Virus record (IMG/VR): IMGVR_UViG_3300045988_154953
Direction: 5' to 3' (one strand)
DNA length: 64,000 bases
From: a virus
In this document: piece by piece, positions 6,855 to 61,269 of the stretch
How positions within the stretch are numbered: the first letter of the stretch is position 1
How the letters are laid out: the number at the start of each line of letters is the position of its first letter
The notes under the pieces: model-generated
Seen by the model: the letters and a program-made list of their open reading frames with translations, nothing else
The model's database searches: none
What the model was told of the DNA's origin: nothing
Program-made: the position numbers and the translations under genes

Positions 6855-6874
6855 AAAATTGGAGATGGTAATTA

Positions 6875-7144: not shown

Positions 7145-7150
7145 TAAATT

Positions 7151-7369: not shown

Positions 7370-7390
7370 TGCGGAAAGGAGTGATGATAT

Positions 7391-7693
7391 ATGAAAGGTA
7401 CGATGAAAGTAAATAAATTAAATAAGTCAGGTCTGTATATTTCTGAAGTTGATTGGGATAAGTGTTATAAAAGTGAAAGTAATCCTGATGGAAATTTCGT
7501 AATGATAATTGAGCCATTGGAGGGATGTGATAAAGGAATTGTTTATTATGAAAAAGTAGACGGTGGATATCTTATTAAAGGTGAAGCTTATATTATAGAG
7601 GACAGAATTGATAGAATCGAAGCAGATATACGGAAATGGAAAACAGCATACAAAAAGAAACCATTTGATTATATAAAGGAGAAATTAAGTTAG
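7391..7693 (+). CDS. hypothetical protein
   Basis: tiled + strand ORF behind AAAGGAG. Confidence 0.55.
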   Translation: MKGTMKVNKLNKSGLYISEVDWDKCYKSESNPDGNFVMIIEPLEGCDKGIVYYEKVDGGYLIKGEAYIIEDRIDRIEADIRKWKTAYKKKPFDYIKEKLS

Positions 7694-7726
7694 CATGAAA
7701 CAAGATTTTCAACGGGAGGTATAAAA

Positions 7727-7957
7727 ATGTCAAAATTAAATTGGAATATAGTTCATGAATGTGATGATGAAGATGGAAATCCAACTCAGTGGTCTTCAGA
7801 AATTAATCATCCAAAATACGGAAAATATTGTTGGATTAATGATATGGGTGATTATTTTGGAGTAGAAGTTGATTATGGAGGTTTTACAGAACTAGTTGAA
7901 TGTAAGTCACTTATAAGTGCAAAAAGATGGGTGGCTACACAGTTAATGAAACGATAA
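7727..7957 (+). CDS. hypothetical protein
   Basis: tiled + strand ORF behind GGGAGG. Confidence 0.55.
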   Translation: MSKLNWNIVHECDDEDGNPTQWSSEINHPKYGKYCWINDMGDYFGVEVDYGGFTELVECKSLISAKRWVATQLMKR

Positions 7958-7981
7958 TTTACTGTAAAGATTGGAGGAAAT

Positions 7982-8182
7982 ATGATGAAACGTGATTTAG
8001 TAGATGAATTATATAAAACGGCATATAAACGATATAGAGAAAAATATCCAAACAAAGATTTTGCATCTATTCCAAATTTTTTAAATTCACTTTGGTTTAG
8101 TATTGAAGGTGAACTTAATAGAAATGGATATGATGCTGCAAGAAAATATGCAGAAGAAGCAGAGTTAATTGTATTAAGGTGA
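7982..8182 (+). CDS. hypothetical protein
   Basis: preceded by the conserved junction TTTACTGTAAAGATTGGAGGAAAT. Confidence 0.55.
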   Translation: MMKRDLVDELYKTAYKRYREKYPNKDFASIPNFLNSLWFSIEGELNRNGYDAARKYAEEAELIVLR

Positions 8183-8204
8183 ATGGTAAGATTGGAGGAA
8201 TAAA

Positions 8205-8537
8205 ATGGAATTATTAAAGGAATATTCAGAAAAATATGGATTAAAAGAAGTTGTAAATGACTATAACGATTATAGACAAACAAAAGAAAATAGTATTGTA
8301 TTCTCTAATGGGTGGGTTGCTTCCATTGTAAAAAATGATGGCATTGATGTTTATCATCCAAACGGAAAACATATCAAAGAATATAAATCCGACAAAAAGT
8401 ATTCAGTTGCGATGTGTGATTATAATGGATATTTTGACTGGGTTTTATTGAATCAATATGGAGCAATTGAAGGTTGTATTTATTGCGACACAGAATTAGA
8501 GATTTTGATTGCTTGCGAAACAATTAGGAGACTTTAA
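8205..8537 (+). CDS. hypothetical protein
   Basis: tiled + strand ORF behind TTGGAGGA. Confidence 0.6.
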   Translation: MELLKEYSEKYGLKEVVNDYNDYRQTKENSIVFSNGWVASIVKNDGIDVYHPNGKHIKEYKSDKKYSVAMCDYNGYFDWVLLNQYGAIEGCIYCDTELEILIACETIRRL

Positions 8538-8587
8538 AGAAACCACAATGAAATGAGGATTTACTAGAAAGAATGGAGGTAATAAGG

Positions 8588-8845
8588 ATGCAGAATATTA
8601 CAGAAATTATCAATATTATAGAAAAATCATGGGGAGTGAATTCTATTGGTTGTCCTTTTGGTTCATGTACAGAGGACTTTGCGAATGAAAAGATGATAGA
8701 AATTGCCAATAGACATAATTTCCCTGACGATATAATTGATTTGATTAAAGATAATCCGATTAAGTTTCCTAAATATCAGAAATTTGATAATGGGCGTGGT
8801 ATAGGTAGATACTATGCAAATTTGATAAGACAAAAGAAACGATGA
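8588..8845 (+). CDS. hypothetical protein
   Basis: ORF 8573..8845; ATG 8588 follows GGAGG. Confidence 0.55.
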   Translation: MQNITEIINIIEKSWGVNSIGCPFGSCTEDFANEKMIEIANRHNFPDDIIDLIKDNPIKFPKYQKFDNGRGIGRYYANLIRQKKR

Positions 8846-8872
8846 TTTACTGTGAAGATTGGAGGAAATATT

Positions 8873-9079
8873 ATGGATGACATGCAGTTTTCGAGATACA
8901 GTTGCGACATAAGAGAAATATTAGAAAAGACAGATCAAGAGGGTCTTGAAAATCTTGTGCGTAATGCAGTTGCTTATTCACAGAGTAACAATAATAGCAA
9001 AGTAAATTGGATCGCACAGGAGTTATTTGTAGATGTGATTCCAGATGAAATGATTGCAGAGATTTTTAATAAGGAATAA
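8873..9079 (+). CDS. hypothetical protein
   Basis: ORF 8852..9079; ATG 8873 follows the conserved junction/GGAGG. Confidence 0.55.
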   Translation: MDDMQFSRYSCDIREILEKTDQEGLENLVRNAVAYSQSNNNSKVNWIAQELFVDVIPDEMIAEIFNKE

Positions 9080-9113
9080 ATGGATATTTCACAAGGAAAA
9101 TGGAGGAGCAGAT

Positions 9114-9581
9114 ATGGAATTTAAAGAGATGATTTTTAAAGGCTTATGTGATGGAATAGTAAAGATTATCAGTAATCCAAATGATGATTGTATTGTTTGC
9201 CAGATTGGAGAATTTTGGCTTTACTTTATTGGAAGCAAAGATGAAGATTTAACACCTGATGAAGTGTATGAGTCATGTACCAAGGAACAACTTGCAGAAA
9301 TGATTTATTCAACATTGCAGGATATGAAAAAGAATGAATTTGATGAAGTTGAATATTGTAAAGCATTTTTGGAAGAAAAATATATATGTAATACAGAAAA
9401 ATCCGATAATACGAATATGATTTTATGGAACGAACTAAAGAAACACAGAGGACATAAGGTGAGTATTGTGTCATATGGAGATTGGGATAATCCAGAAGAT
9501 GTATGCTTAGAGTGTGAGGATTGTGGAGAAGTTGTACTTGATGCAGAAATTTATACATTATGTGCAAGAGAAGATATTTAA
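9114..9581 (+). CDS. hypothetical protein with C-terminal CxxC..CxxC
   Basis: ORF 9054..9581; ATG 9114 follows GGAGGAG. Confidence 0.6.
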   Translation: MEFKEMIFKGLCDGIVKIISNPNDDCIVCQIGEFWLYFIGSKDEDLTPDEVYESCTKEQLAEMIYSTLQDMKKNEFDEVEYCKAFLEEKYICNTEKSDNTNMILWNELKKHRGHKVSIVSYGDWDNPEDVCLECEDCGEVVLDAEIYTLCAREDI

Positions 9582-9600
9582 TTGAATGGAGGAAAACAAT

Positions 9601-9801
9601 ATGATGTGGACAAAATTATTTAATGTAGTCAGTATTGATAATTTAGAAGGATTGGTTTTTGCAAGATGTACCACTTATGAAAAAGCTGTTAAGGCAAAAG
9701 AGTGTTTAGAAAATAATGAATTTGAAAATATGATCGATATAGTTCAAGATGAAATTCCAGTAGATGTGATTGAAATTAATTCTCAGTTATTAGAACTGTA
9801 A
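9601..9801 (+). CDS. hypothetical protein
   Basis: ORF 9586..9801; ATG 9601 follows GGAGGA. Confidence 0.5.
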   Translation: MMWTKLFNVVSIDNLEGLVFARCTTYEKAVKAKECLENNEFENMIDIVQDEIPVDVIEINSQLLEL

Positions 9802-29501: not shown

Positions 29502-30596
29502 ATGCGACAGGAATTTATAAACAATGGAAATAAGCTTAATGCTAATGACATTCAGAAACATATGCAGGATATGGATTGCTATAAAGAATGTGGATCACAG
29601 GCAGCACAGAAAACAATTCAAATGTTGGATAAAATGTGGAAGTCATTTCTTGTGTCAATAAAGGACTATTACAAAAATCCTGCTAAATATTTGGGCAAAC
29701 CAAAAATTCCAAAGTATTTGAAAAAAGATGGGAGACAAGTGTTTTCGTTGAAGAATATTCAATGTTCATTAAAAAATGGGTTGTTTAGAATCTCTTTTAA
29801 ACCGTTCAAAGGATATACAGTGAGAACACATGCGGATGGGAAACTAATACAATGTAGATTTATACCGAAAGGTTTATATTATGTAATGGAAATCGTCTAT
29901 GAAATTGAAGTACCAAATATTTCAGAAACTTCTAACAGAGTGGCTGCTATTGATATTGGAGTTGATAATTTCATAACTATGGTAAACAACATTGGTGAGA
30001 ATCCAATAGCTGTTAAAGGTGGAATTATTAAGTCGATCAATCGGTTTTTTAATAAACAGAAAGCAAATATTCAATCAGAGTTGAAAAAAGTTAATGGGAA
30101 AGATTGGTCAAAGAAGTTACAAAAACTTACAGACAAGCGATACGAAATGATTAAATACCAAATGCATTGTATAAGTAAGTATGCAGTTGATTGGTGCGTC
30201 TTGTATGGAATTGATACATTAATTGTAGGACATAACGATGAATGGAAACAAAAGAAACAAGGTATGCAGAACTTTACTTACATTCCTTATGAACTGTTTA
30301 TTCAGATGCTTGCATATAAATGTGAAAATAACGGAATCAGGTTCGTAGAGAATGAAGAGACATATACTTCTGGAACATCATTTTTTGACAATGAAGATCC
30401 TGTAAAAGAGAATTATAATAAGGAACGCAGAGTTTATAGAGGATTATTTATTGCAGATTGTGGAAAGAAGATAAATGCAGATGTAAATGGGGCATATCAG
30501 ATATTAAAGAAGGTAATTCCTGATGCGTTTAGCAATGGAATAGAGGGTGCAGGTTCACATCCAACAATTATTAACTTGGCTATGCTGATATCGTAA
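29502..30596 (+). CDS. tnpB: TnpB-like RNA-guided endonuclease (IS200/IS605 accessory protein, clostridial Zn-finger-less type)
   Basis: RuvC triad candidates AIDIGVDNF / ENEETYTSG / NADVNGAYQI. The TnpB-like N-terminus (IKVQRTEQQNIRKGHPIFEIVDRYCFYSKNVYNEANYL) continues in frame upstream to 29382 with no ATG/GTG/TTG. Confidence 0.7.
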   Translation: MRQEFINNGNKLNANDIQKHMQDMDCYKECGSQAAQKTIQMLDKMWKSFLVSIKDYYKNPAKYLGKPKIPKYLKKDGRQVFSLKNIQCSLKNGLFRISFKPFKGYTVRTHADGKLIQCRFIPKGLYYVMEIVYEIEVPNISETSNRVAAIDIGVDNFITMVNNIGENPIAVKGGIIKSINRFFNKQKANIQSELKKVNGKDWSKKLQKLTDKRYEMIKYQMHCISKYAVDWCVLYGIDTLIVGHNDEWKQKKQGMQNFTYIPYELFIQMLAYKCENNGIRFVENEETYTSGTSFFDNEDPVKENYNKERRVYRGLFIADCGKKINADVNGAYQILKKVIPDAFSNGIEGAGSHPTIINLAMLIS

Positions 30597-32507: not shown

Positions 32508-33506
32508 ATGAATGGAATTACAGAATATGAGATGACGTTTCAACGAAAAATAAATAAAATTCTTGAAGAAAACAAAAATTTATATGGATTTTATGGGTTT
32601 ATGACGAATATTTCAATTTCTTCTGCATATAACTATTTAAGACATATCGAAAGATTCTTGTTGTATCTTGATGGAAAACCTTTAAACGAATTGACGATTG
32701 ATGATTTTACCGGATACATGATTAAAATCCAGAGGAAAGATAACGGAGAGAAAGTTACATCATCGTATAAAATTACTGTGTATTCAGCCTTAAAAAAATA
32801 CGGAAAATACTTAGTAGGATCACATCAGTTAGAAAGTAATCCTATGGACTTTGTAGATCGACCAAAGGCAACAGAGAGTCAAGAAACTATTTCAAAACGA
32901 GAAAATGGATATTTGACAACAGGTGAAATTAAGTCTTATATATCCGCAGTTAAACATGGGAGTGGCAATGATAAAAGTATAGCAATGCAAATGGAATGGA
33001 AAGAAAGAGATATGGCGATTATAATGATTTTCTTAAACACTGGTATAAGATGTTCAGCCCTAATGAAGCTTGATGTGAAAGATATAAATTTTCAACAGAA
33101 GACATTATCTGTTATTGACAAAGAGTCAAAATATAACGTATATAATTTATCTGATGAGATATTAAATATCATTAAAGATTGGCTAGATAAGAGGCGTTTA
33201 TTACTTTTTGGCACAGAAAATGATGCTTTGTTTATTTCTAATCGAAGAACACGTATGACACAAAACGCAATTTCTTATGTTGTCCAAAAATATGCATCCG
33301 ACATAAAAGGCAAACATATAACACCGCATAAATTAAGAGCAACATATGGTACACAGTTATACAACGCCACAAAAGATATTTATTTTGTGCAGCAGTGCTT
33401 AAAACATAATAGTCCAAAAACATCCGAATTATACATCAGAGGAAATGATAATAGCAATCAAACTGGCAAAGCTTCTGACATCATGAAGTATATAACACTA
33501 AACTAA
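32508..33506 (+). CDS. tyrosine recombinase/integrase
   Basis: SAM-like N-domain; catalytic candidates NTGIRCSAL (R), HKLRATYGT (H-x-x-R), LKHNSPKTSELYIR (H...Y). Confidence 0.75.
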   Translation: MNGITEYEMTFQRKINKILEENKNLYGFYGFMTNISISSAYNYLRHIERFLLYLDGKPLNELTIDDFTGYMIKIQRKDNGEKVTSSYKITVYSALKKYGKYLVGSHQLESNPMDFVDRPKATESQETISKRENGYLTTGEIKSYISAVKHGSGNDKSIAMQMEWKERDMAIIMIFLNTGIRCSALMKLDVKDINFQQKTLSVIDKESKYNVYNLSDEILNIIKDWLDKRRLLLFGTENDALFISNRRTRMTQNAISYVVQKYASDIKGKHITPHKLRATYGTQLYNATKDIYFVQQCLKHNSPKTSELYIRGNDNSNQTGKASDIMKYITLN

Positions 33507-33604: not shown

Positions 33605-34876
33605 ATGTTAAAAGATAGGAGGACACTTGAATTATATTTAGAAAATTGTAATTTTGATATAGCCATAGATAATGAGAAATGTAAAGAAATATACGATTAT
33701 GCAAATCTAATTTATAATATTCCAAAGTCTTTAGTTTTAGATTATATGACTCAAAGAAAGTCTTTGGCTGAAGCATCTGAATTTGAATTGTTTATATTAT
33801 TAGATTCAATTCTCAAATTCACAAAAAATGAAAGTAAACTTACGACATATTTTACAGAAAAGGAGTTAAATTTTTATTCCACAGAAAAATTTCAAAACGA
33901 AAATATAAAATTTCCATTGGAATTTAAAGCTATACAAATAACAAATGATCAATGGATCGGAAAAATTAATGTTAAAACTTTAATGAAATTTCGTAAAGCG
34001 CAGCTTATCAATTACGATGCAAATACTCAACGTGTAATGACGAGGATTGTTCGTAATGAAAAAGTTGAATGGAAGATAACAACCAATAAAAAATCTGTAA
34101 ACGAAATTGCTAGAGAATATGAGAACAATACGTTTATTCCGAATACCATTACATTAAATATTCCTACAGATAGTGACGCAGACTTTTATTATGACGAAGA
34201 AACATGTACACTTATTATAAATAAACTTGAGCACTTTAATATAACAGATGGGTATCACAGATACTTAGCAGAAGCAGAAACGAGTGATAAAATTCCTGAT
34301 TTCGATTATCCGATGGAATTAAGAATCATTAATTTTACGGACGATAAAGCTAAAAGGTTTATATCCCAGGAAGAACATAAAAACCATATGAAAAAACTAG
34401 ATAGCAAATCAATGGATATGAATAATATGGCGAATATTACCGTAGAGAGATTGAATGACAATGTGAATTTTAATTTAAAAGGATTGATATCTCGAAATAG
34501 AGGAATCGTAAATTTTCCAATTCTTGCTGATTTAGTTGAGTATTTTTATTTTAAAAATACCCCTAAAAGTAAATCCAGGATAACAATGATACAAACAGTT
34601 AAGGAATTGACAGATAAAATCAATGAATTTACAGAATGTTATCCTGAATATCTTGAAAAAGAAATAGATTATAGTACAATATTATCTATGATGTTTTGTT
34701 TCAATTACTACAAAGATACAAACAAACCAAATATAAATGAAATAATCATTCGGCTTGCAGATAGAATAAGAAATACAAAAAATCCAACACTTCGTGATAA
34801 AAGATCTACTCCTAAAAAGATGAGGTTAGTTGAACAGGAATTATTAGAAGTTTTAAATGAGATGGAGGGAAAATAA
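33605..34876 (+). CDS. DGQHR/DndB-like ParB-Srx fold protein
   Basis: 423 aa; HFNITDGYHRYLAEAE core motif with the upstream Q/R-rich strand pattern typical of DndB-like proteins. Confidence 0.45.
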   Translation: MLKDRRTLELYLENCNFDIAIDNEKCKEIYDYANLIYNIPKSLVLDYMTQRKSLAEASEFELFILLDSILKFTKNESKLTTYFTEKELNFYSTEKFQNENIKFPLEFKAIQITNDQWIGKINVKTLMKFRKAQLINYDANTQRVMTRIVRNEKVEWKITTNKKSVNEIAREYENNTFIPNTITLNIPTDSDADFYYDEETCTLIINKLEHFNITDGYHRYLAEAETSDKIPDFDYPMELRIINFTDDKAKRFISQEEHKNHMKKLDSKSMDMNNMANITVERLNDNVNFNLKGLISRNRGIVNFPILADLVEYFYFKNTPKSKSRITMIQTVKELTDKINEFTECYPEYLEKEIDYSTILSMMFCFNYYKDTNKPNINEIIIRLADRIRNTKNPTLRDKRSTPKKMRLVEQELLEVLNEMEGK

Positions 34877-34877
34877 T

Positions 34878-35636
34878 ATGCATGATACAAGTTGTTTTTA
34901 TAATGAGGAGTTAAAAAATAGATTTATTAATGATAAATCAGAAGAAATTATAAGCGTAACATCCATGTATTATATGTTCAAGAAAGTTGCAAAGATAGAA
35001 ACGGAATTGAATAAAGATTTATGTGATTGGAATTATTACGAAATAATGGAGTATTATAAATTACTTAATTGTTCTTCAATACAACCATTAATCATTATAA
35101 ATGCAATATTTTCACAGTATACACAATTTTGTTTGATGAACAATATTGTAAAAGACAGCCAGAATCATTATACAGAAGTTAAAAGAGAAATATTAATCAA
35201 ATGTATCAATAAATTAATATTGGATAAAAAATGCGTGGATCGAGAACAAGTTTTAACATGGATAGATGAATTGCCGAATCCGAAAGATCAATTTATTATG
35301 CTTGGTGTATTCGAATTTGGAAAGAGAAGAAATTACTATGATATTGCAAATGCTAAACCTGAAGATGTAGATTTACGAAATTGTACATTGAAACTGGAAA
35401 ATAGAACAGTAAAAATTTCAGAAAAATTAGTAGAGATAATAAAAGATTGCATGAGTACAAATTACTACTTTTCAGTTTCTGGTTCATTCTTAAAGAGAAT
35501 GCCGTTAATTTACGATGGACACATTGTTAAAAAGTATCCAAACGAGGAAATTAAATCAACCGATTATGCAAAGGAAGAAACATTTATCAAAGTCTTACAA
35601 GAAGTTTTAAATATCTTGGTGTTGAAAAATGGATGA
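34878..35636 (+). CDS. integrase-like (SAM-like N-domain) protein without a clear catalytic set
   Basis: ORF 34857..35636; ATG 34878 follows GGAGGGA. The layout resembles the recombinase core-binding domain, but no R-H-R-Y set is seen. Confidence 0.4.
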   Translation: MHDTSCFYNEELKNRFINDKSEEIISVTSMYYMFKKVAKIETELNKDLCDWNYYEIMEYYKLLNCSSIQPLIIINAIFSQYTQFCLMNNIVKDSQNHYTEVKREILIKCINKLILDKKCVDREQVLTWIDELPNPKDQFIMLGVFEFGKRRNYYDIANAKPEDVDLRNCTLKLENRTVKISEKLVEIIKDCMSTNYYFSVSGSFLKRMPLIYDGHIVKKYPNEEIKSTDYAKEETFIKVLQEVLNILVLKNG

Positions 35637-46279: not shown

Positions 46280-47011
46280 GTGGCTGCAATTATAATTGTT
46301 ATTACCATTATTATAGTTGGTGTATTATTTTTCACAAAGACAGGCAAAAGATTGAGACTTAGAGCGTCAGGCACAGCAGAAGAAATGATAACAAAAGATG
46401 CTGCAACACCAAATGGAGCTAAAGCACACTATAATGCCGTTATTTCAAAAAAAGAAGAAGAATATCAGAACGTAAACAAATTTTATACTGAAACGCTTGG
46501 AAACATTAAATTCTATGAAACACAATTGCGTTCATTGCAAAAAGAAAATATGCAGTTAAACCTTAATATTAATAATTGTGTTGAGAAAAACGATGATAAT
46601 GGTGCTAAAGTATATTTAGGTCGTCAACAAGAAGTAAATGATAAGATTGATATTATCAAAAATACTTTAGTTGAATTACGAAGAAATTCTGAGCTTCAAA
46701 AGGAAAATTTAGATACATTATATGAAAATATTAATAATTTAAAGTCCGAAAAGGAAACTTCAGTTTTGACTCTTGAAGCAGCTGAGATAACAAAATCATT
46801 AAAATCCGCTCCTGGTGTTTATTCGCAAGAAGAAGATAAAATGCTTGAAAAAGTACGCGATGGAGTAAAGAAAGCTAAGAAAGAAGCAGATGGCGTTAGT
46901 ATCGCTTATGAAAATTCAATGGATGTTCAACAGAAACGTCTTGATAAGAAAATGAAAGATGACGAAGTTAATAGAAAGCTTAAACAACTAAAAGATGCTA
47001 AGAAAAAATAA
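46280..47011 (+). CDS. membrane-anchored PspA/IM30-like coiled-coil protein
   Basis: N-terminal TM helix, then long heptad-rich region with a VEKNDDNGAKVYLGRQQE segment like PspA 'AL..G.EDLAR.AL'; GTG start. Confidence 0.45.
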   Translation: MAAIIIVITIIIVGVLFFTKTGKRLRLRASGTAEEMITKDAATPNGAKAHYNAVISKKEEEYQNVNKFYTETLGNIKFYETQLRSLQKENMQLNLNINNCVEKNDDNGAKVYLGRQQEVNDKIDIIKNTLVELRRNSELQKENLDTLYENINNLKSEKETSVLTLEAAEITKSLKSAPGVYSQEEDKMLEKVRDGVKKAKKEADGVSIAYENSMDVQQKRLDKKMKDDEVNRKLKQLKDAKKK

Positions 47012-47027
47012 ACTAATCAATTTAACA
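47010..47027 (+). repeat. 18-nt boundary motif copy R11
   Basis: AAACTAATCAATTTAACA; overlaps the upstream TAA. Confidence 0.75.
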
Positions 47028-47034
47028 AAAAATA

Positions 47035-47066
47035 TTGACAGAAAATAATATATATGATATTATAAT
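47035..47066 (+). promoter_or_regulatory. strong sigmaA-type promoter of the RNA array
   Basis: TTGACA (47035-47040), 17 nt, TATTAT (47058-47063); an overlapping TATAAT at 47061-47066. Confidence 0.65.
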
Positions 47067-47096
47067 CATGTCAGCAAGGATAGTTTTTGTAAAATT

Positions 47097-47114
47097 AAAC
47101 TAATCAATATAATT
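47097..47114 (+). repeat. 18-nt boundary motif copy R12
   Basis: AAACTAATCAATATAATT; followed by the hairpin CAAATGG/CCATTTG. Confidence 0.8.
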
Positions 47115-47144
47115 TCCAAATGGTTTAAAATTTCCATTTGTTGA

Positions 47145-47232
47145 AAGAATCTGGTGTACGGAGCACGATAAATTGTTTTATTTAATTATAAAATAATTTG
47201 TAAGAAATAAGTTCAATTCTTATTGATTCTTC
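47145..47232 (+). ncRNA. tRNA-like RNA T0 (long 12-bp hairpin in place of the anticodon arm)
   Basis: acceptor AAGAATC/GATTCTT, D arm TG-GTGT-ACGGA-GCAC, T arm ATAAG-TTCAATT-CTTAT, central AAATTGTTTTAT-TTAATT-ATAAAATAATTT. Confidence 0.45.
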
Positions 47233-47354
47233 TTTGGCTTGCTGAAGCCAATCTCATACTTTTCATTCCATATCTTCTTTATAAGCTCTGATCCAGTTTT
47301 GAAGAATACATTGGAAGATGTTCACTTACTCATCTATAAAAAAGTAAGTAATAT

Positions 47355-47437
47355 AGGAGTGTGGTGAAATTGGATAGACACCCCAGATTTTGATTCTGGT
47401 GTCGCAAGACGTGTGGGTTCGAGTCCCACCACTCCCG
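47355..47437 (+). tRNA. class II (long variable arm) tRNA, apparent anticodon UUG
   Basis: acceptor AGGAGTG/CACTCCC (A1:C72 mismatch), 3-bp D stem GTG/CAC with GG loop, AC arm CCAGA-TTTTGAT-TCTGG, variable arm TGTCGCAAGACGT, T arm GTGGG-TTCGAGT-CCCAC, G73; no encoded CCA. Confidence 0.7.
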
Positions 47438-47636
47438 CTATGAACAAACTCCGAAGTACAAGGATAGTAGTTCAGAATGGATCCATAAAACAATTAAAAC
47501 ATCAAAAATACGCTGTTTTATTTCTTTATATTTAAATCTCGGTTTGGAGTTTGTAAGAAACAGTCTTTAGGTTACGTTAATATCTAGAAAACTTACCGGA
47601 GTTCGGCACTCTGGAGTGGATGTCTACCACTCAAGT

Positions 47637-47706
47637 TGCACTGCTAATGGATTAGCTGCTAAGTAGTCATTGGCCATGCAGAAAGGTTCGATTCCTTTCA
47701 GTGCAA
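47637..47706 (+). ncRNA. tRNA-like RNA T2 (irregular D/anticodon region)
   Basis: acceptor TGCACTG/CAGTGCA and T arm AAAGG-TTCGATT-CCTTT are perfect. The best anticodon arm is GCTAA-GTAGTCA-TTGGC (AGU, C37), which is non-standard. Confidence 0.4.
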
Positions 47707-47963
47707 TTAAATTCTTTATTTCAGAGAAGTGAATAATCAGCATTAGGCTTAACACAAATGATAAGCATAAACTTGTTGCCAAGTGATTCTTGTAAAAAGA
47801 TTATAGAGTAAACTATTAAAAATCCTGCAAATAATCTCGTAGATCAGAGATTATCAGATATCTAGTCAATAAAAGGCGTTCACGACATCTGACAGAGAAT
47901 ATTAATTATTATGAAATGTATAAAATTAATGCGGATCATTTGCTTAGAATCATGATTCAGGTT

Positions 47964-48026
47964 TGTTCATTGGTGTAAAGGTGCATATCAGAAATGATGG
48001 TTCTGGTTCGACTCCAGAATGAACAA
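47964..48026 (+). ncRNA. tRNA-like RNA T3, only 63 nt, no pairable anticodon stem
   Basis: acceptor TGTTCAT/ATGAACA, D arm TG-GTGT-AAAGGT-GCAT, T arm TCTGG-TTCGACT-CCAGA; only 15 nt between the D and T arms. Confidence 0.45.
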
Positions 48027-48126
48027 TTATCTCATAAGTAGAAATGAGATGTGAGGACGCTATCCAAAATATAAGAAATAGTAAGCTTATGGATTGCTTG
48101 TACAAATATGCTGAAAATCCACACTT

Positions 48127-48200
48127 AGGAAATTAGCTCAGTTGGTGAGAGCGGCGGCCTTATAAGCCGTGTGTGCTGGGTTCAAGTCCCAGATTTCCTA
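48127..48200 (+). tRNA. tRNA-Ile (anticodon UAU)
   Basis: AGGAAAT-TA-GCTC-AGTTGGTGA-GAGC-G-GCGGC-CTTATAA-GCCGT-GTGTG-CTGGG-TTCAAGT-CCCAG-ATTTCCT-A; anticodon 48161-48163; no encoded CCA. Confidence 0.85.
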
Positions 48201-48387
48201 TTCAATATAAAATAAGTATAAATGAACCATATAAAATATTCATATGTCATTCACTCCTGTTTTTACATACAATCTTTTTGGTTCATTAAATTCTATTTTG
48301 TATTTAGGCGATTTCTGCAATTCAAAGAAATTATAAAGTTATAATTAGACTTAAAATCTAATCGATAAAATTATATCGTCTAGTAAT

Positions 48388-48456
48388 GGCTTCATGGCGT
48401 AAAGGTTAGCGCAATAATCTAGTAATGAGGATCTGGTTCGAATCCAGATGAAGCCA
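48388..48456 (+). ncRNA. tRNA-like RNA T5, 69 nt, no pairable anticodon stem
   Basis: acceptor GGCTTCA/TGAAGCC, D arm TG-GCGT-AAAGGTTA-GCGC, T arm TCTGG-TTCGAAT-CCAGA. The centre AATAATCTAGTAATGAGGA cannot form a 5-bp stem; paralog of T3. Confidence 0.45.
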
Positions 48457-48504
48457 GCAGTATTTATTACTGTAATTCTTTTATATACCCTCCAATACAA
48501 CAGA

Positions 48505-48558
48505 TAGACACTAACAGCAATTTTTACATATGGTATTAAAAATATTTATGGTGTCTAG
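48505..48558 (+). ncRNA. ACAGCAA-module RNA S1 (stand-alone)
   Basis: TAGACAC-TA-ACAGCAA-[TTTTTACATA tgg TATTAAAAA hairpin]-TATTTATG-GTGTCTA-G. Confidence 0.6.
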
Positions 48559-48564
48559 AATATG

Positions 48565-48682
48565 GAAGACGTAGGGAAGTGGCCAAACCCAACAAAGAAT
48601 AGTGGTTAGCTACTTAATCGCTTACAGCAAAGTTAATTGTAAAACAGGCAAGTTTTCGTGAGTTCGAATCTCACCGTCTTCC
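48565..48682 (+). ncRNA. tRNA body T6 (class II-like) with the ACAGCAA module in the anticodon position
   Basis: acceptor GAAGACG/CGTCTTC, D GGG-AAGTGGCCAAA-CCC, ACAA...TTGT flanks 41 nt containing CTT-ACAGCAA, variable arm AAAAC-AGGCAA-GTTTT, T arm GTGAG-TTCGAAT-CTCAC. Confidence 0.55.
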
Positions 48683-48688
48683 AAACCT

Positions 48689-48811
48689 CGTCAGATAGTT
48701 TCAATTGGTAAAACACTGCTTAAATCAAATGTGATTAGTTAATTAATCACTAACAGCAATATTCTTATGATGGGCCTGGCAGAACTATAGGTTCGAATCC
48801 TATTCTGGCGA
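48689..48811 (+). ncRNA. tRNA body T7 with a 57-nt insert replacing the anticodon loop
   Basis: CGTCAGA-TA-GTTT-CAATTGGTA-AAAC-A-CTGCT[57 nt: ...GTGATTA-gttaat-TAATCAC-TA-ACAGCAA...]GGCAG-AACT-ATAGG-TTCGAAT-CCTAT-TCTGGCG-A. Confidence 0.6.
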
Positions 48812-48813
48812 TT

Positions 48814-48871
48814 TAGACGGATACAGCAATTTAATGGATAAGACTTTTAATCTTAATACCAAGCCGTCTAG
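48814..48871 (+). ncRNA. ACAGCAA-module RNA S2 (stand-alone)
   Basis: TAGACGG-AT-ACAGCAA-[34 nt with a TAAGA/TCTTA hairpin]-CCGTCTA-G; starts 2 nt after T7. Confidence 0.6.
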
Positions 48872-48877
48872 TATATG

Positions 48878-48992
48878 AGGAATATAGCTCAGTTGGTAGA
48901 GCATCGGACAATACAAAAAAGAGTCTAGTTATAGACTTGAACAGCAAATTATAAAACTCTGACTGTCGTTGGTTCGAATCCAACTATTCCTC
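48878..48992 (+). ncRNA. tRNA body T8 with a 49-nt insert replacing the anticodon loop
   Basis: AGGAATA-TA-GCTC-AGTTGGTA-GAGC-A-TCGGA[49 nt: ...GAGTCTA-gtta-TAGACTT-GA-ACAGCAA...]TCTGA-CTGTC-GTTGG-TTCGAAT-CCAAC-TATTCCT-C. Confidence 0.6.
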
Positions 48993-48994
48993 AT

Positions 48995-49060
48995 TAGGTG
49001 CAATTACAGCAAAAAGAAAAGCGTATAATTTGGGATTATAATAGCAAAAACTGCACCTAG
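48995..49060 (+). ncRNA. ACAGCAA-module RNA S3 (stand-alone)
   Basis: TAGGTGCA-ATT-ACAGCAA-[TATAAT ttggg ATTATA hairpin]-TGCACCTA-G; starts 2 nt after T8. Confidence 0.6.
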
Positions 49061-49066
49061 TTTGTC

Positions 49067-49193
49067 AAGTGGGTAGCTCAGTGGTAGAGCACGATAATAA
49101 GATAATGTGTCGAGTACTTTAGTGACACTTACAGCAATTTTTCTTTTTTGCATTTTAAGCACGATGTCGTAGGTTCGAGTCCTGCCCCACTTG
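49067..49193 (+). ncRNA. tRNA body T9 with the ACAGCAA module inserted between the D arm and the variable loop
   Basis: AAGTGGG-TA-GCTC-AGTGGTA-GAGC...GTGTC-(12)-GACAC-TT-ACAGCAA...ATGTC-GTAGG-TTCGAGT-CCTGC-CCCACTT-G. 8-nt direct repeat AGCACGAT at 49088 and 49158; a possible weak UUU arm TTTGC-ATTTTAA-GCACG. Confidence 0.55.
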
Positions 49194-49196
49194 TTT

Positions 49197-49269
49197 TAGA
49201 TGATAACAGCAATTCACGAAAATATAAACACATTTATTAAACAAGTATAAAAGTTATAAAATCATCTAG
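49197..49269 (+). ncRNA. ACAGCAA-module RNA S4 (stand-alone)
   Basis: TAGATGA-TA-ACAGCAA-[49 nt]-TCATCTA-G; starts 3 nt after T9. Confidence 0.6.
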
Positions 49270-49276
49270 CGATTAT

Positions 49277-49335
49277 AAGACAGTTACAGCAACACTATTA
49301 TATAAAAGACTTAAAATTTAAAACAAAACTGTCTT
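49277..49335 (+). ncRNA. ACAGCAA-module RNA S5 (stand-alone)
   Basis: AAGACAGTT-ACAGCAA-[34 nt]-AACTGTCTT (9-bp perfect closing helix). Confidence 0.55.
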
Positions 49336-49341
49336 GGAATC

Positions 49342-49359
49342 AAAGTAACTTTACAACAA
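49342..49359 (+). promoter_or_regulatory. module-like leader element of the vWA gene
   Basis: AAAG-TAA-CTTT mini-hairpin followed directly by ACAACAA; about 10 nt upstream of the AAAGGAGA RBS. Confidence 0.35.
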
Positions 49360-49384
49360 TTTTGGTTCAAAGGAGAATAAATTT

Positions 49385-50938
49385 ATGTTTATGAACGATT
49401 TAAAAGAAACGTTAAATGAAGATTTTAATGAATCTATCACCGAAAATAATGCCAATGGTTATAGAACAACAGGAAAAGAACTGTTGGATATGAACTTTAT
49501 GGTATCTTCGATGAGAAAAATGAGTGATAAACAAATTATTGATAAATTTGTAAAAGCTTTCTATGAAAATAAAATGTATGCAATTAAATGGTTGTATTAC
49601 GTAAGGGATGCTCGTGAGGGAGTTGGCGAGAGAAGATTGTTCAGAGTTTGTATGGAATATCTTGCAAAGAATCATACAGACATTGCAAAAGCCATGATCC
49701 CTTTGACAGCTGAATATGGTCGTTGGGATGACTTATTATCTTTACTTGATACAGAATTAGCTGACAATGTTATTAAATTATTTGGTGATCAGCTTACTGA
49801 AGATATGAAAAACTTGAAATCAAATAAACCTATTTCATTATTAGGTAAATGGATGCCTAGCTGCAATGCATCATCTAGAAAAACTAGAAAACTGGGTGTA
49901 GAGATTGCGGAAAAGCTTGGTATTTCTGAAAGGAAGTATAGAAAGATGCTTTCTGCCATCAGAAAATATCTTGACGTTGTAGAAGTTAAAATGGCTGCAG
50001 GACAATGGGATCAGATTGATTATTCAAAAGTTTCCTCAAGAGCTAATTTAATTTATAATAACGCTTTTCTGAGACATGATGAAGAACGTAGACGTAAATA
50101 CCTTGAAAGCTTGCAAAAAGGCGAAACAAAGATTAATGCCGGTGTATTATTTCCACATGATATTGTACATAAGTATTATAACTTAGATTATTGGCGTATC
50201 AATATTAAAAATTATGATACAGCACTTGAAGAAATGTGGAAGGCATTACCAGATTATGTGAATGGTGCTGGTAATACAATTTGTGTTGCTGATGGGTCTG
50301 GAAGTATGTACACAAGAGTAGGTGGCACAAATGTAATGGCGATTGAAGTAGCAAATGCTTTAGCAATTTATTTTTCCGAAAGATGCTCTGGACAGTTTAA
50401 GGATAATTATATAACCTTTAGTATGAATCCGAAACTTGTTAGTTTTAGTAGAGCTAAATCTTTAAAAGAGAAAATAGAAATTGCTTTAAAACACACCGAA
50501 TGTGCTAATACGAATATTGAAGCCGTATTTGATTTGATTCTTAAAACAGCAATTAGAAAAAATATGAAACAGGATGAATTACCGCAGAATATATTGATTT
50601 TATCGGACATGGAGTTCGATAGTTGTGTTGAATACAATAGAAGTAGCAGATGTAATCTCAATAGACCTACCAAAAGATTATTTAAAGTATTTGAAGAAAG
50701 ATATGCTGAACATGGCTATAAACTTCCAAGATTAGTATTTTGGAATATTTGTAGTAGAACTGGTACAATTCCTGTAAAAGAAAATGATTTAGGTGTAGCA
50801 CTTGTAAGTGGTTTCAGTCCGGCAGTTGTTAAGATGGTACTTAGTAATAGTACAGATCCACTTGAATGTTTACTTGAACAGTTGAATTCAGAAAGATATC
50901 AGCCGGTAGAAGATGCAATCAAGGATTTAGTTGCTTAA
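49385..50938 (+). CDS. large helical N-domain + C-terminal vWA/MIDAS protein (DUF2828-like; Ro60/TROVE-like layout)
   Basis: 517 aa; about 290 aa of predicted helical repeats (YGRWDDLLSLL, GKWMPS, LFPHDIV), then MIDAS CVADGSGSM and LILSDMEFD. Family name is from memory, not searched. Confidence 0.6.
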   Translation: MFMNDLKETLNEDFNESITENNANGYRTTGKELLDMNFMVSSMRKMSDKQIIDKFVKAFYENKMYAIKWLYYVRDAREGVGERRLFRVCMEYLAKNHTDIAKAMIPLTAEYGRWDDLLSLLDTELADNVIKLFGDQLTEDMKNLKSNKPISLLGKWMPSCNASSRKTRKLGVEIAEKLGISERKYRKMLSAIRKYLDVVEVKMAAGQWDQIDYSKVSSRANLIYNNAFLRHDEERRRKYLESLQKGETKINAGVLFPHDIVHKYYNLDYWRINIKNYDTALEEMWKALPDYVNGAGNTICVADGSGSMYTRVGGTNVMAIEVANALAIYFSERCSGQFKDNYITFSMNPKLVSFSRAKSLKEKIEIALKHTECANTNIEAVFDLILKTAIRKNMKQDELPQNILILSDMEFDSCVEYNRSSRCNLNRPTKRLFKVFEERYAEHGYKLPRLVFWNICSRTGTIPVKENDLGVALVSGFSPAVVKMVLSNSTDPLECLLEQLNSERYQPVEDAIKDLVA

Positions 50939-50944
50939 AAAGAA

Positions 50945-51010
50945 TAGATACGCACAGCAATTAAGAAGTTTGGTTTAGGTTCACATCCTTTTTCAAATAT
51001 TTGTATCTAG
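50945..51010 (+). ncRNA. ACAGCAA-module RNA S7 (stand-alone, 3' of the vWA gene)
   Basis: TAGATAC-GC-ACAGCAA-[42 nt incl. T-loop-like AGG-TTCACAT-CCT]-GTATCTA-G. Confidence 0.55.
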
Positions 51011-51035
51011 ATAAAAAATAGAAACGTTAAAAGTT

Positions 51036-51064
51036 ATGCGTCAGTAAAGTTGCTGACGCATTTT
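51036..51064 (+). terminator. rho-independent terminator closing the RNA/vWA operon
   Basis: ATGCGTCAG-taaagttg-CTGACGCAT followed by TTT. Confidence 0.7.
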
Positions 51065-51081
51065 ACAAATAGGAGAAGTAA

Positions 51082-51372
51082 ATGGTTTTTTGTAGTGATG
51101 ATAGAAAAGAATTAATTGTGACATGTAAATGTGGATGCCAGGATTCAATTCATGTGAAAATAGATAAAGAAAGTCCAGACTATTATTGTTTGGTTACTTA
51201 TATGAATGGTAATTGGAGTAGAGATCAAGGAGATAAGATTCATAGAACAATTGGAAGAAAACTTAAGAAAATCTGGAGTATTATTCGCAATAAAGATTAC
51301 TATTATTCAGATATTATTATGAGAAAGTCAGATTTCAAGATATTAAAAAATTATATTAATGAGATTGAGTAG
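51082..51372 (+). CDS. hypothetical Cys-rich protein
   Basis: TAGGAGAAG RBS; CKCGC motif. Confidence 0.55.
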   Translation: MVFCSDDRKELIVTCKCGCQDSIHVKIDKESPDYYCLVTYMNGNWSRDQGDKIHRTIGRKLKKIWSIIRNKDYYYSDIIMRKSDFKILKNYINEIE

Positions 51373-57985: not shown

Positions 57986-58354
57986 TTGAGTTGTAAGTAT
58001 CCAGAAAATAGTAGAAGTTATATGTTTTGTATTGGATGTAAAGAAGCAGATTCTTGTTCAAGTTCAACATTCAACATTCCAATGCCAGATAATGTAAAGC
58101 CACCAAAAAATTCTATTCCAACAGCTGCTGAAGCAAAAAATGTAACTGAGTTGGCTATAGAGAATTCTATCACCAAACAATTAGAAGAATTATCATTTAA
58201 AATAAATACAGCAATTCATAAAGGAAAATATGACATTACAAACGATGGTATTTTGGATCTAGAAGTAAAAAGAAGATTAGAAGATCTCGGTTATAATATT
58301 ACAATTGGGAATCAATATAACGAATCATATTATACGATTAGTTGGAAAGGATGA
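57986..58354 (+). CDS. hypothetical protein
   Basis: TTG start behind GAGGTGAG. Confidence 0.55.
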   Translation: MSCKYPENSRSYMFCIGCKEADSCSSSTFNIPMPDNVKPPKNSIPTAAEAKNVTELAIENSITKQLEELSFKINTAIHKGKYDITNDGILDLEVKRRLEDLGYNITIGNQYNESYYTISWKG

Positions 58355-59054: not shown

Positions 59055-60386
59055 ATGGAGGCTATGAACTGGAACCCGGTATTAAGCAAGTTTGTAGAAA
59101 TTAAAAATGAATTCAAAAAGAAACTTGGATATATAACTTACTATTATACTGAAGGTTACACAAACGAATCTCAAACTTGTTTAGAAAGATGGGTAGAATA
59201 TTTAAATGGTATTAAGCCGTTTAATCAATATCAAGAGTATGCAGATTTGCTTTCATGTCTTGAATTAAATCAATATGGAGATTTTCTTCTTTTAAGATAT
59301 GGAAGATATAGTAACATTTATGATGGTGAAATTGAAAAGTCTGGTGAGGATTTTTGGGATAGATATGAGGGTTTTTACAGAGAATGTAGAAGTATAGTAA
59401 TTGATGTAAAAAATGATTGTATTGTACTTTGCCCATTTCGCAAATTTTTTAATCTAAATGAGTTAGAAGAAACTAGTGAAGAAAACATTAATAAAAGAAT
59501 TGAGAACGCATCACTTATAGAATTTTCAAATAAATTAGATGGATCGATGCAAACAGCTACATGGTACGATGGTAAAATTATTATGGCTGGAAGTCAAGCA
59601 ATAAATCCAGAAAAATCGTGGAGATTACAGGATGGATACAGAATGATTCAAGCGTTGCCTGGATATGAGCAAATGCTTAAAATGCATCCTAACTTTACAT
59701 TTATATTTGAATATATCTCTTTGGCCGATGCTCATGTAGTAAAATATAAAAAAGAGCAAGAAGGTCTATATCTTATTGGTATTAGAGATAATTTAACAGG
59801 ACATGAACTTAGTTATCGTAAGGTGATAGATATTGCTAATCATTTTAATATTCCAACAACGGTATTATTTGATAAAACACTTGGACAAATCTTAAATGAA
59901 TTAGATAACAAAAGTTCAGAAGAAGCAGAAGGCTTTGTTATTAACATTGATGAATATAAAGTTAAAGTGAAATATAATGATTATGTACATATTCATAAAG
60001 CACTGTCTAAACTCTCTTCAATAAATCTTATTATTCGTTCTATTGCAGATGATCAGTACGATGATCTCTTATCTAAACTTCCAGCAGCTTATCATGATAG
60101 TGTAAAAAAAGTAGCTGCTATCGTATTCAGATATATAAAAGATACAGAACGAACTTCTAACGAATATTTTCAGCAAGCTCCAAAAACTAGTCAAAAAGAA
60201 TTCATGATCTGGATTGATAGAAATGTTCCTAAAAAGTTCCGTGGATTTTGTAGGGAATTGTATTTTGGAAACGAAATTAATGTAATTAAATTCAATCAAT
60301 CTGGAGATCCAAAATATTTAAAATTAAATCAAATGGGAGTAAATGATTACTCTACATTATTCACACAGGAGGAAGAAAATGAGTAA
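59055..60386 (+). CDS. ATP-dependent RNA ligase (Rnl1/T4 RnlA-like nucleotidyltransferase)
   Basis: motif I FSNKLDGSM (KxDG), motif IV EGFVINI, motif V KVKVKYNDY; 443 aa. Confidence 0.65.
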   Translation: MEAMNWNPVLSKFVEIKNEFKKKLGYITYYYTEGYTNESQTCLERWVEYLNGIKPFNQYQEYADLLSCLELNQYGDFLLLRYGRYSNIYDGEIEKSGEDFWDRYEGFYRECRSIVIDVKNDCIVLCPFRKFFNLNELEETSEENINKRIENASLIEFSNKLDGSMQTATWYDGKIIMAGSQAINPEKSWRLQDGYRMIQALPGYEQMLKMHPNFTFIFEYISLADAHVVKYKKEQEGLYLIGIRDNLTGHELSYRKVIDIANHFNIPTTVLFDKTLGQILNELDNKSSEEAEGFVINIDEYKVKVKYNDYVHIHKALSKLSSINLIIRSIADDQYDDLLSKLPAAYHDSVKKVAAIVFRYIKDTERTSNEYFQQAPKTSQKEFMIWIDRNVPKKFRGFCRELYFGNEINVIKFNQSGDPKYLKLNQMGVNDYSTLFTQEEENE

Positions 60387-61269
60387 ACCTATACTTTGGG
60401 TTATGGTAGGACTTTCGGGAAGCGGTAAGTCAACGATTGCTAAAAAAATTGCTGCTGATAATCCTAATACACTAATAATATCGTCAGATAATATTCGTGA
60501 AGAAATAACCGGTGATTATGAAGACCAGGAACATAACGCAGAAGTATTTAATATTTTTCATGATAGAATTCTCAAGAATCTTGAAAATAAACAGAACGTC
60601 GTAGCCGATGCTACAAATCTTACAATAAAATCCCGTAGATCAATTTTGAATAAAGTGAATGGATTAGATATTGAGAAAATATGTGTTATTATTCCAAAAC
60701 CATTTGAAAAGTGTAAAGAAGATAATTTACATAGAGAGCATCCTGTACCAGAAGATGTATTAAATAAACAGCTCAGAAGATTTCAAGTACCATTTAAAGA
60801 AGAAGGGTGGAATGAAATTAAAATCCATTATTTACAAAAAGATGGATATGAACCAAATGAGATTCGTTTCTTAGATATGGAAAGTTTTGATCAGAAGAAC
60901 CCGCATCATACTATGGATTTACTTGAGCATTGTACACATGCAACAGACATGTTTATCGAAAAACACAAATATTCGCCAGAATTTATAATTGGTGCTTTAT
61001 ATCATGATATTGGTAAGCTGTACACACAAACATTTGATGAAAACGGTATAGCTCATTACTACCAGCATCATGCGGTCGGTTCATATTTGTATTTTACTAG
61101 TATGTATCCAATAGGGAATCCTGTATTAGATACATGTTTTCTTATCAACTATCATATGATGCCATTTAGTTGGGAAAGCGATAAGTCAAAGAAAAAGTGG
61201 AAAAAGATATTTGGTAATTATAAATATCAAATGCTTTTAGATTTTAATGAATGTGACAAGGCGAGATAG
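60379..61269 (+). CDS. P-loop polynucleotide kinase fused to an HD phosphohydrolase domain
   Basis: ATG 60379 overlaps the ligase stop; Walker A GLSGSGKST; C-terminal H...HDIGK (ALYHDIGKL) and YQHH. Confidence 0.65.
   Translation: MSKPILWVMVGLSGSGKSTIAKKIAADNPNTLIISSDNIREEITGDYEDQEHNAEVFNIFHDRILKNLENKQNVVADATNLTIKSRRSILNKVNGLDIEKICVIIPKPFEKCKEDNLHREHPVPEDVLNKQLRRFQVPFKEEGWNEIKIHYLQKDGYEPNEIRFLDMESFDQKNPHHTMDLLEHCTHATDMFIEKHKYSPEFIIGALYHDIGKLYTQTFDENGIAHYYQHHAVGSYLYFTSMYPIGNPVLDTCFLINYHMMPFSWESDKSKKKWKKIFGNYKYQMLLDFNECDKAR

Follow-up and report, generated by a model that had tools for sequence, protein, structure and literature searches.

The described systems closest to the locus presented here are those that pair a Ro60/Rsr protein with Y RNAs, such as Salmonella rsr-yrlBA-rtcBA and that of the Thermus phage phiLo. 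The phiLo Ro60 protein binds two Y-like RNAs (Yrl1 and Yrl2) encoded just upstream of its gene (PMC12135203), and the bacterial Y RNA YrlA mimics tRNA and has its gene beside rsr and rtcB (PMC4201824). The present study deals with a 64,000-nt stretch, called the window below, of the IMG/VR virus record IMGVR_UViG_3300045988_154953, a 207-kb contig from a human gut metagenome. In this window, a gene of the protein family DUF2828 lies in an array of small RNAs that share a short stem and the motif ACAGCAA. It is probable that this protein and these RNAs assemble into a Ro/Y-RNA-like particle whose RNA handle is new.

The locus shares several properties with the Ro60/Rsr systems. Its protein combines a helical domain with a vWA domain carrying a MIDAS (metal ion-dependent adhesion site), and its predicted fold is similar to that of Ro60 over the full length. 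The candidate partner RNAs adjoin the gene on the same strand; they are closed by a stem between their 5' and 3' ends and present a loop in which a short conserved motif lies towards the 5' side, a likeness of architecture that is analogous only. Cargo resembling tRNA in part of the RNAs, and the RNA ligase or repair genes found nearby, extend the parallel. In contrast to Ro60, the window protein has no TROVE sequence match and belongs to DUF2828/DUF7788. The RNAs come in arrays of 6 to more than 10, instead of 1-4 for the Y RNAs, and their cargo is typically a bare mimic of an anticodon stem-loop, which is not the arrangement of YrlA. The handle is moreover also found circularly permuted inside tRNA genes, and copies of it stand in the leader and the trailer of the protein gene itself.

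Family and predicted fold of the protein

49385..50938, + strand: DUF2828/DUF7788 protein of 517 aa, with a helical N-domain (aa 1 to ~290) and a vWA domain (aa ~297-490)

This gene starts with an ATG preceded by AAGGAG at 49370-49375, and is the only substantial open reading frame (ORF) between a promoter-like site (47035-47063) and a hairpin followed by UUUU (51036-51061), which agrees with the original prediction of a sole protein gene in the operon. That prediction had also named DUF2828, and correctly so. The window protein matches Pfam PF11443 (DUF2828) at 3e-40 (138.6 bits for a cut-off of 29) and PF25043 (DUF7788) at 1e-43 (149.6 bits for a cut-off of 27.1), as well as PHROG 850, named 'RNA-binding protein', at 1e-138 over its full length; its Pfam VWA_2 match is sub-threshold. 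The segment CVADGSGSM is encoded at 50282-50308 and contains D303-G-S305-G-S307 at 50291-50305. Across 59 homologs (39-56% identity), the MIDAS residues D303, S305, S307, T376 and D408 are invariant, and the N-domain of the family holds a cluster of nearly invariant basic and aromatic residues. IMG/VR was scanned with an alignment in place of the single protein, which had returned one locus.

The family amounts to 7,373 proteins at 90% clustering and to 6,894 clusters at 50%, and is present in 710 isolated phages, including Felix O1-like, Listeria P100/A511-like, Staphylococcus, Enterococcus and Campylobacter phages. Relatives of some of these carriers are used in biocontrol. Close homologs in mycobacteriophages are already labelled 'Ro-like RNA binding protein' in public annotation (SEA-PHAGES), and the homolog of Pectobacterium phage CBB carries the virion annotation 'structural protein'. 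The existing Ro-like names rest on remote similarity only, and neither a function nor an RNA partner or motif was found for DUF2828 or the 'Ro-like RNA binding protein' in the openly searchable literature, a scope that leaves most subscription journals outside. On account of its membership of DUF2828 and PHROG 850 and of the existing 'Ro-like' annotation, the window protein is, at the protein level, a new member of a known and uncharacterised family whose Ro-likeness was already implicit in the databases.

An AlphaFold2 model of the protein, built from 71 sequences, obtained a predicted local distance difference test (pLDDT) score of 78 and a predicted template modelling (pTM) score of 0.71. 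The N-terminal ~290 aa of this model are almost entirely helical and are followed by an alpha/beta vWA domain; together with the invariant MIDAS residues, this is the domain order that had been read from the sequence at the outset. The comparison of this order with Ro60/TROVE, made at the same time, also holds at the level of the fold: the nine top PDB matches of the model found by Foldseek are all Ro60/TROVE (E 2.5e-8 to 2e-4, template modelling (TM) score 0.38-0.53, 512-593 aligned columns). The chains matched are those of Thermus phage phiLo Ro60 (9kop, 9l5y), Xenopus Ro (1yvr, 1yvp, 2i91) and human Ro60 (9nen, 9nf8, 9nfa). The remaining PDB fold matches cover the vWA domain alone, over ~200-260 columns and with E >= 7e-3. 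In BFVD, a phage TROVE protein matches the model more distantly (TM 0.56). The DUF2828 fold is also present in this database in giant viruses (Pithovirus, Marseillevirus, CroV and Mimiviridae, TM 0.67-0.78).

The sequences provide a fainter signal. The top four PDB matches of a profile made from the 59 sequences are again Ro60/TROVE, with weak scores (E 0.075-0.6) confined to the MIDAS region/vWA domain, and Pfam vWA_Ro60 (PF25045) is matched by 8 of the 59 homologs, at best with 1e-5. The protein is only weakly Ro-like by sequence and clearly so by its modelled structure.

The ACAGCAA module and its linkage to the gene

The module is an RNA with a median length of 68 nt, closed by a 7-bp stem, with the consensus 5'-[A/U]AGRCNCNN-ACAGCAA-(24-60 nt)-NNGNGYCU[U/A]G-3'. 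The 5' strand of this handle helix ([A/U]AGRCNC) runs after 1-3 nt into the single-stranded ACAGCAA. The 13 nt that precede ACAGCAA pair with sequence 15-130 nt downstream at -10.0 kcal/mol, against -7.0 kcal/mol for shuffled arms (p = 3.5e-41). These duplex energies replaced a control on helix length (G-U pairs allowed, random positions), which is uninformative in AT-rich DNA. In the 47-sequence seed alignment, 85.9% of the helix cells are paired, against 65.2% after shuffling and 26-44% when slid, and 111 cells are doubly changed where 41.5 are expected; the covariation score is 0.61 against 0.225 for shuffled alignments, and none of 500 shuffles scored as high. Finally, the seven inner pairs (3-9) are 100% paired, with compensatory changes at every one, in 43 independent hits of the covariance model, which establishes the helix as a conserved RNA structure. 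The motif reads ACAGCAA in 40 of these 43 hits, and UCAGCAA in Synechococcus phage B3.

The decisive evidence is the linkage of this module to the DUF2828 gene. In 13 of 14 distant loci (26-41% identity), an exact ACAGCAA is found on the gene strand at no more than 350 nt from a gene end, and the fourteenth contains variant copies of the motif. Of the 14 loci, 13 are from named phages. The 13 loci with an exact copy come from phages of Enterococcus, Listeria, Escherichia, Mycobacterium (two phages), Fusobacterium, Campylobacter, Staphylococcus, Bacillus, Vibrio, Sinorhizobium and Prevotella (Lak), together with one IMG/VR contig, and the pairing of gene and RNA spans phages of at least six bacterial phyla. 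The strand preference was counted in two larger sets of related loci, and with the covariance model of the module, named R1:

Motifs in the flanks of 80 IMG/VR loci: 363 on the gene strand, 31 on the opposite strand
Motifs in the flanks of 80 GTDB loci: 205 on the gene strand, 40 on the opposite strand
IMG/VR loci with a copy <= 200 nt from a gene end: 52/80 on the gene strand, 1/80 on the opposite strand
GTDB loci with a copy <= 200 nt from a gene end: 52/80 on the gene strand, 3/80 on the opposite strand
R1 hits in the 14 distant loci: 26 on the gene strand, 0 on the opposite strand
R1 hits in the GTDB loci: 43 on the gene strand, 0 on the opposite strand

When both sets are combined, a copy lies within 200 nt of the gene ends in 104 of the 160 loci, against 4 on the opposite strand. 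A reverse test, whose evidence is weaker, scanned the collection for one arm variant of the module and retrieved 49 full modules; a DUF2828 gene was present in the examined stretch for 19 of them, always on the same strand and at a median distance of 348 nt, and near 2 of 74 chance matches.

The position of the module relative to the gene is also recurrent. A module 50-140 nt before the start codon is found in most related loci, and one within 200 nt after the stop codon in 23 of 160; in phages of Staphylococcus and Mycobacterium, the stop codon is immediately followed by modules. The 5' untranslated region (UTR) of the gene consists of a promoter and then a single module in Fusobacterium FNU3, Sinorhizobium phiN3 and the loci L006 and L048, and in Vibrio V09 the motif occupies this position with no evident stem. 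The neighbourhood of structured RNAs sought around homologs was also found: distant homologs lie in or beside tRNA or non-coding RNA (ncRNA) arrays, and the ACAGCAA stem module flanks them on the gene strand. Such a location in or beside a tRNA array is seen in Enterococcus VRE9_2, Listeria LMTA-57, E. coli phage heid (Felixounavirus), Campylobacter CP81, Bacillus KoopaTroopa and Synechococcus B3.

The unit made of the helix and ACAGCAA exists in two topologies with the same strand consensus. In addition to the terminal stem of the module, 103 copies consist of a 7-bp hairpin followed by ACAGCAA. This circularly permuted handle is embedded in tRNA-like genes, where it follows the D arm or replaces the anticodon loop; the related locus L003, for example, encodes at 4325-4445 a tRNA-Tyr(GUA) bearing an extra handle arm. 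A helix and single-stranded tail that persist while their connectivity is permuted behave as a protein-binding handle would, and the two topologies are as expected for a protein-binding site. Both are present in the window:

48503..48558, + strand: stand-alone module, terminal stem UAGACAC/GUGUCUA enclosing ACAGCAA (R1 44.4 bits; fold)
48601..48630, + strand: permuted handle in tRNA-like gene 48563-48679 (hairpin 48601-48622, ACAGCAA 48624-30)
48731..48759, + strand: permuted handle in tRNA-like gene 48688-48809 (hairpin 48731-48750, ACAGCAA 48753-59)
48812..48871, + strand: stand-alone module, interior hairpin 48839-48855 with loop CUUUUAA (R1 56 bits)
48921..48947, + strand: permuted handle replacing the anticodon loop of tRNA-like gene 48878-48992 (hairpin 48921-48938)
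48993..49060, + strand: stand-alone module, interior loop UUUGGGA, tRNA-Pro UGG-like (R1 38 bits)
49107..49137, + strand: permuted handle in tRNA-like gene 49067-49193 (hairpin 49107-49128)
49195..49269, + strand: stand-alone module (R1 33 bits)
49275..49336, + strand: stand-alone module, immediate leader of the ORF, ending 49 nt before the ATG (R1 53.7 bits)
49336..49369, + strand: separate leader hairpin GGAAUCAAAG/UUUUGGUUC, abutting the ribosome-binding site, loop with ACAACAA at 49353-59 (fold)
50943..51010, + strand: stand-alone module, trailer copy, starting 5 nt after the stop codon (R1 37.6 bits)

The six stand-alone copies are the only convincing matches obtained when R1 was run with its filters off over all 64 kb of the window. 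A match at 58197-58255 was taken as chance, being inside a 122-aa ORF and having a weak stem. Another weak one at 48303-48383 (18 bits, E 0.12), just upstream of an odd tRNA at 48388-48456, may be a degenerate module. The motif itself is present 16 times in the window for 8.4 expected, with nine copies within 48514-49292 and one at 50954, and its complement UUGCUGU, as a pairing partner, is absent from the array. No family of Rfam 15 covers the module. In the region 46900-51200, no non-tRNA Rfam match is significant, those at E <= 1 being far below the gathering score and overlapping no module, and the modules of loci L006-L010 match no family (E <= 0.1). A host promoter or a self-cleaving ribozyme was also considered for the identity of the module, and both are unlikely, since phages of different phyla share the same motif and no more than 7 unpaired nt are conserved.

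The four tRNA-like genes of this list carry the extra arm, made of a hairpin and ACAGCAA, after the D arm or instead of the anticodon loop. All four are missed by ARAGORN. The Rfam gathering scan lists only 48878-48992 (tRNA match of 51.8 bits, 48-nt insert), and 49067-49193 (43 bits, 68-nt insert) appears only in the E-value scan. In the latter gene, the handle is flanked by a 7-nt direct repeat, GCACGAT (49089-49095 and 49159-49165), kept in the L003 and L013 orthologs, which may allow an alternative pairing of the D stem.

The two ends of the protein gene deserve particular attention. The original prediction placed a handle copy just upstream of the ribosome-binding site and a full module after the stop codon. 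The trailer module is confirmed by R1 at 50943-51010. In the leader, the ACAACAA pointed out at 49353-59 does exist, but it belongs to the loop of a separate hairpin and is not scored by R1; the stem of this hairpin is kept with compensatory changes in related phages (L001, L003 and L014) and its loop sequence is not. A genuine full module is nevertheless present in the leader, at 49275-49336. These leader and trailer copies suggest that the protein would load in cis on its own transcript or feed back on its own mRNA. A presumed RNA target in the 5' UTR next to the ribosome-binding site recalls the autoregulatory leaders of ribosomal proteins, T4 RegA and gp32; unlike these, the element is also a free-standing RNA in multiple copies, and regulation is here only presumed.

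Cargo, proposed role and competing explanations

What the RNAs carry was examined in 184 distinct short interiors of the module. An anticodon-type hairpin, defined by a stem of at least 4 bp and a 7-nt loop whose second nucleotide is U and whose sixth is a purine, is present in 71 of them (~39%), against 14 of 184 after shuffling. The anticodons implied are UUU (20), UGA (8), GUU (5), GCA (4) and UGG (3), and other interiors contain a T arm or whole tRNA bodies. In the window, the CUUUUAA loop of hairpin 48839-48855 is an anticodon-loop mimic of tRNA-Lys(UUU), and the L003 ortholog (4639-4697) keeps this loop on a stem with compensatory changes. Likewise, the orthologs of 48993-49060 in L003 and L001 retain a UUUGGGG/UUUAGGA loop. 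This layout, in which a connector leads from the terminal stem to an anticodon-type hairpin (Y-U-NNN-R-A loop) and a second one on to the closing strand, is reminiscent of armless or truncated tRNAs and of tRNA mimics. The module differs from them by the absence of CCA or acceptor identity, by a connector that is the invariant ACAGCAA, and by the proportion of interiors, ~39%, that are anticodon-like.

A mechanism can be proposed on this basis. The DUF2828 protein would be a Ro60-like RNA-binding protein, co-transcribed with an array of handle-bearing small RNAs, and would bind the handle in the way that Ro60 binds the conserved Y RNA stem. The cargo so presented would vary from RNA to RNA. 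Most commonly it would be an anticodon-stem-loop mimic, with tRNA-Lys(UUU) the tRNA most frequently imitated, and sometimes a T arm; where the handle is permuted into a hairpin, the cargo would be the whole tRNA-like body. tRNA-Lys(UUU) is a classic target of anticodon nucleases. The particle would most likely act in a conflict over tRNAs. Host enzymes that cleave or modify anticodon loops could be decoyed or sensed by it, or it could offer a platform for the repair of tRNAs. This role is suggested by the anticodon-loop mimicry, by the Rnl1 ligase and polynucleotide kinase of the window, and by the RtcB and Thg1-like genes near homologs. A broader proposition would make of DUF2828 and the ACAGCAA RNAs an unrecognised ribonucleoprotein present in many phage lineages, forming a second and much more widespread Ro/Y-like system, with programmable tRNA mimics (bare anticodon stem-loops, tRNA-Lys UUU first among them, and handle-tagged tRNAs) that decoy, sense or repair the damage of host anticodon nucleases and other tRNA-targeting immunity; it is advanced tentatively, the balance of probability being against it.

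Several points weigh against a Ro/Y-RNA-like particle and its proposed role. TROVE (PF05731) gave no match at E <= 1 for the window protein or any of the 59 homologs, and a phmmer search of the single window protein against PDB gave none either. The likeness to the Ro60 fold is moderate (TM ~0.5), and the loops of the model are partly of low confidence. The handle motif is ACAGCAA and not the (G)NCGAA of known Y RNAs; the modules do not contain the Ro-binding motif GNCGAA(N)G / GGUCCGA and have no Rfam Y RNA match. The binding of the handle by the protein is a step that we infer from fold, RNA structure and linkage. The role in tRNA conflict is much less certain than the particle, drawing only on anticodon-loop mimicry and a loose gene neighbourhood. 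Finally, no exact motif was present in the 3-kb flanks of the homolog in loci L058, L061 and L091, and 30 of the 49 full modules of the reverse test have no DUF2828 gene in the stretch examined, which is part of a contig; these 30 modules sit in very long gene-poor arrays.

Arrays of this kind, exceeding 7 kb with no DUF2828 gene in the stretch examined, would be natural if the modules were processing or stability signals that punctuate tRNA/ncRNA arrays for another factor, whether an RNase of the host (P, E, III, Z) or a further phage protein, and if DUF2828 merely shared these arrays. Stand-alone modules do directly abut tRNA 3' ends, and their own fixed 3' end, CUUG/CUAG, could be a cleavage site. 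Small RNAs are likewise found among the tRNAs of T4 (rnaC/rnaD) and T5 (RNAI, RNAIII, RNA1-3), from which they are probably released by tRNA-processing enzymes. However, the motif is absent from the tRNA arrays of these two phages, where R1, run on the tRNA regions including those with the stable small RNAs, gave no match better than E = 2, and no DUF2828 is annotated in the stretches examined. The motif is moreover shared unchanged by phages from at least six bacterial phyla with differing RNases, it occurs as a single copy in the DUF2828 5' UTR of phages with no adjacent array (FNU3, phiN3, V09, mycobacteriophages), and DUF2828 is the sole gene common to all neighbourhoods. A processing signal is, for these reasons, rather improbable.

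The RNA-binding function of the protein could itself be questioned, as vWA domains usually bind proteins, TROVE is undetected by sequence and the CBB homolog is annotated as structural. The protein would in this case be a vWA/MIDAS module for protein interaction, such as a virion or assembly factor or a chaperone cofactor, and its Ro shape would be convergent or vestigial. The full-length fold nonetheless matches only Ro60, the N-domain has its cluster of nearly invariant basic and aromatic residues, and the gene persists inside ncRNA arrays, where it is strand-linked to a conserved RNA motif, so that this explanation is quite unlikely.

A small mobile or selfish DNA element, related to miniature inverted-repeat transposable elements or to homing cassettes and spreading in phage genomes, would account for the multiple copies, for their insertion into tRNA genes and for the one tRNA-like family in which a 7-9-nt direct repeat surrounds the insert (49089-95 and 49159-65 in the window). 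Such flanking repeats are not general, and their length distribution equals that of a shuffled control. All the copies within a locus are on the transcribed strand, an RNA helix is maintained through G-U pairs and compensatory changes, the arms vary in sequence from copy to copy, unlike those of a recent transposition, and the orthologous position of each copy is stable between the window and L001/L003. Little credit can be given to a mobile origin. Least plausible of all is a ligand-sensing riboswitch or leader controlling DUF2828 expression: even if the module is often the sole element of the 5' UTR, only 7 single-stranded nt and a generic stem are conserved around a freely variable interior, and copies are also met beyond the stop codon, within tRNAs and in arrays of at least ten.

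The reading of the original prediction, in which the protein is the partner of the ACAGCAA modules, is supported as a whole, and a Ro/Y-RNA-like particle is retained here as the probable one.

Genomic setting and significance

The genes of the window are all on the + strand and are those of a large phage, including a sliding clamp, a DnaD-like loader, an NAD-dependent DNA ligase, a prohead protease, a C5 DNA methylase, an Rnl1-like RNA ligase and a polynucleotide kinase. At the DNA level, the window has no close relative among isolated phages. Since most of its closest protein relatives among assembled genomes belong to Lachnospiraceae and other Clostridia, this clade likely contains the host. 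The transcription unit is probably delimited by the following elements, the first lying after an ORF that ends at 47011:

47035..47063, + strand: promoter-like site of sigma-70 type, TTGACA-17-TATTAT with upstream TG, the best site of the scan (11/12 matches), probable start of the RNA-array/DUF2828 transcription unit
51036..51061, + strand: GC-rich hairpin of 11 bp followed by UUUU (fold, -16.2 kcal/mol), probable terminator of the unit

The terminator hairpin was overlooked by a pattern scan because its U tract is short. The first kilobase of the array (47100-48120) is devoid of ACAGCAA and holds an odd ARAGORN 'tRNA-???' at 47146-47232. A class-II tRNA with a long variable arm and the anticodon UUG, at 47355-47437 (also L001 2886-2965), resembles phage tRNA-Leu genes and could be a reassigned or unusual decoder. 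Two elements containing a T arm, at ~47560-47700 and ~47930-48020, were classified by no tool. The Rnl1-like RNA ligase (59055-60386, phrog_562, 4e-41) lies ~8 kb downstream of the operon and forms with the polynucleotide kinase (60343-61269, phrog_505) a T4-type tRNA repair pair. The phage genome also contains a transposase-like gene and two integrase-like genes (29502-30596, 32508-33506 and 34857-35636).

Other loci have a comparable environment. In Listeria phage LMTA-57 (L008), the DUF2828 gene and three modules share a tRNA/ncRNA region with an RtcB ligase (7856-9067), which lies 1.3 kb downstream of the DUF2828 gene; the same region also holds a ROOL RNA (3476-4027, 88.5 bits, just below the gathering score) and a drum RNA (989-1087). 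Thg1-like genes, of the tRNA 5'-end repair/tRNA-His guanylyltransferase family, are found within 3 kb of DUF2828 in L013, L028, L030, L033, L034 and L074, and a polynucleotide kinase homolog is also present in L013 and L091. Very large ncRNA arrays are seen in gut phages: L105 is gene-poor over ~7.8 kb (1900-9700), with modules every 1-3 kb on one strand and no DUF2828 gene in the stretch examined, and L130, L153, L173 and L222 are similar (ORFs were listed for L105 only).

The new part of the finding is the RNA partner, with its motif, its two topologies and its breadth, none of which is described in Rfam or in the literature searched. If the proposed particle exists, a conserved and testable RNA partner would turn the very large orphan family DUF2828 into a defined ribonucleoprotein, and a new class of small RNAs, outside the coverage of Rfam, would be added. 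Many 'gene-free' stretches and failed tRNA calls in large phage genomes would be explained, and the biology of Ro and Y RNAs would be linked to the arms race between phages and bacterial defences over tRNAs. As several of the hosts are genetically tractable, this hypothesis is directly testable.

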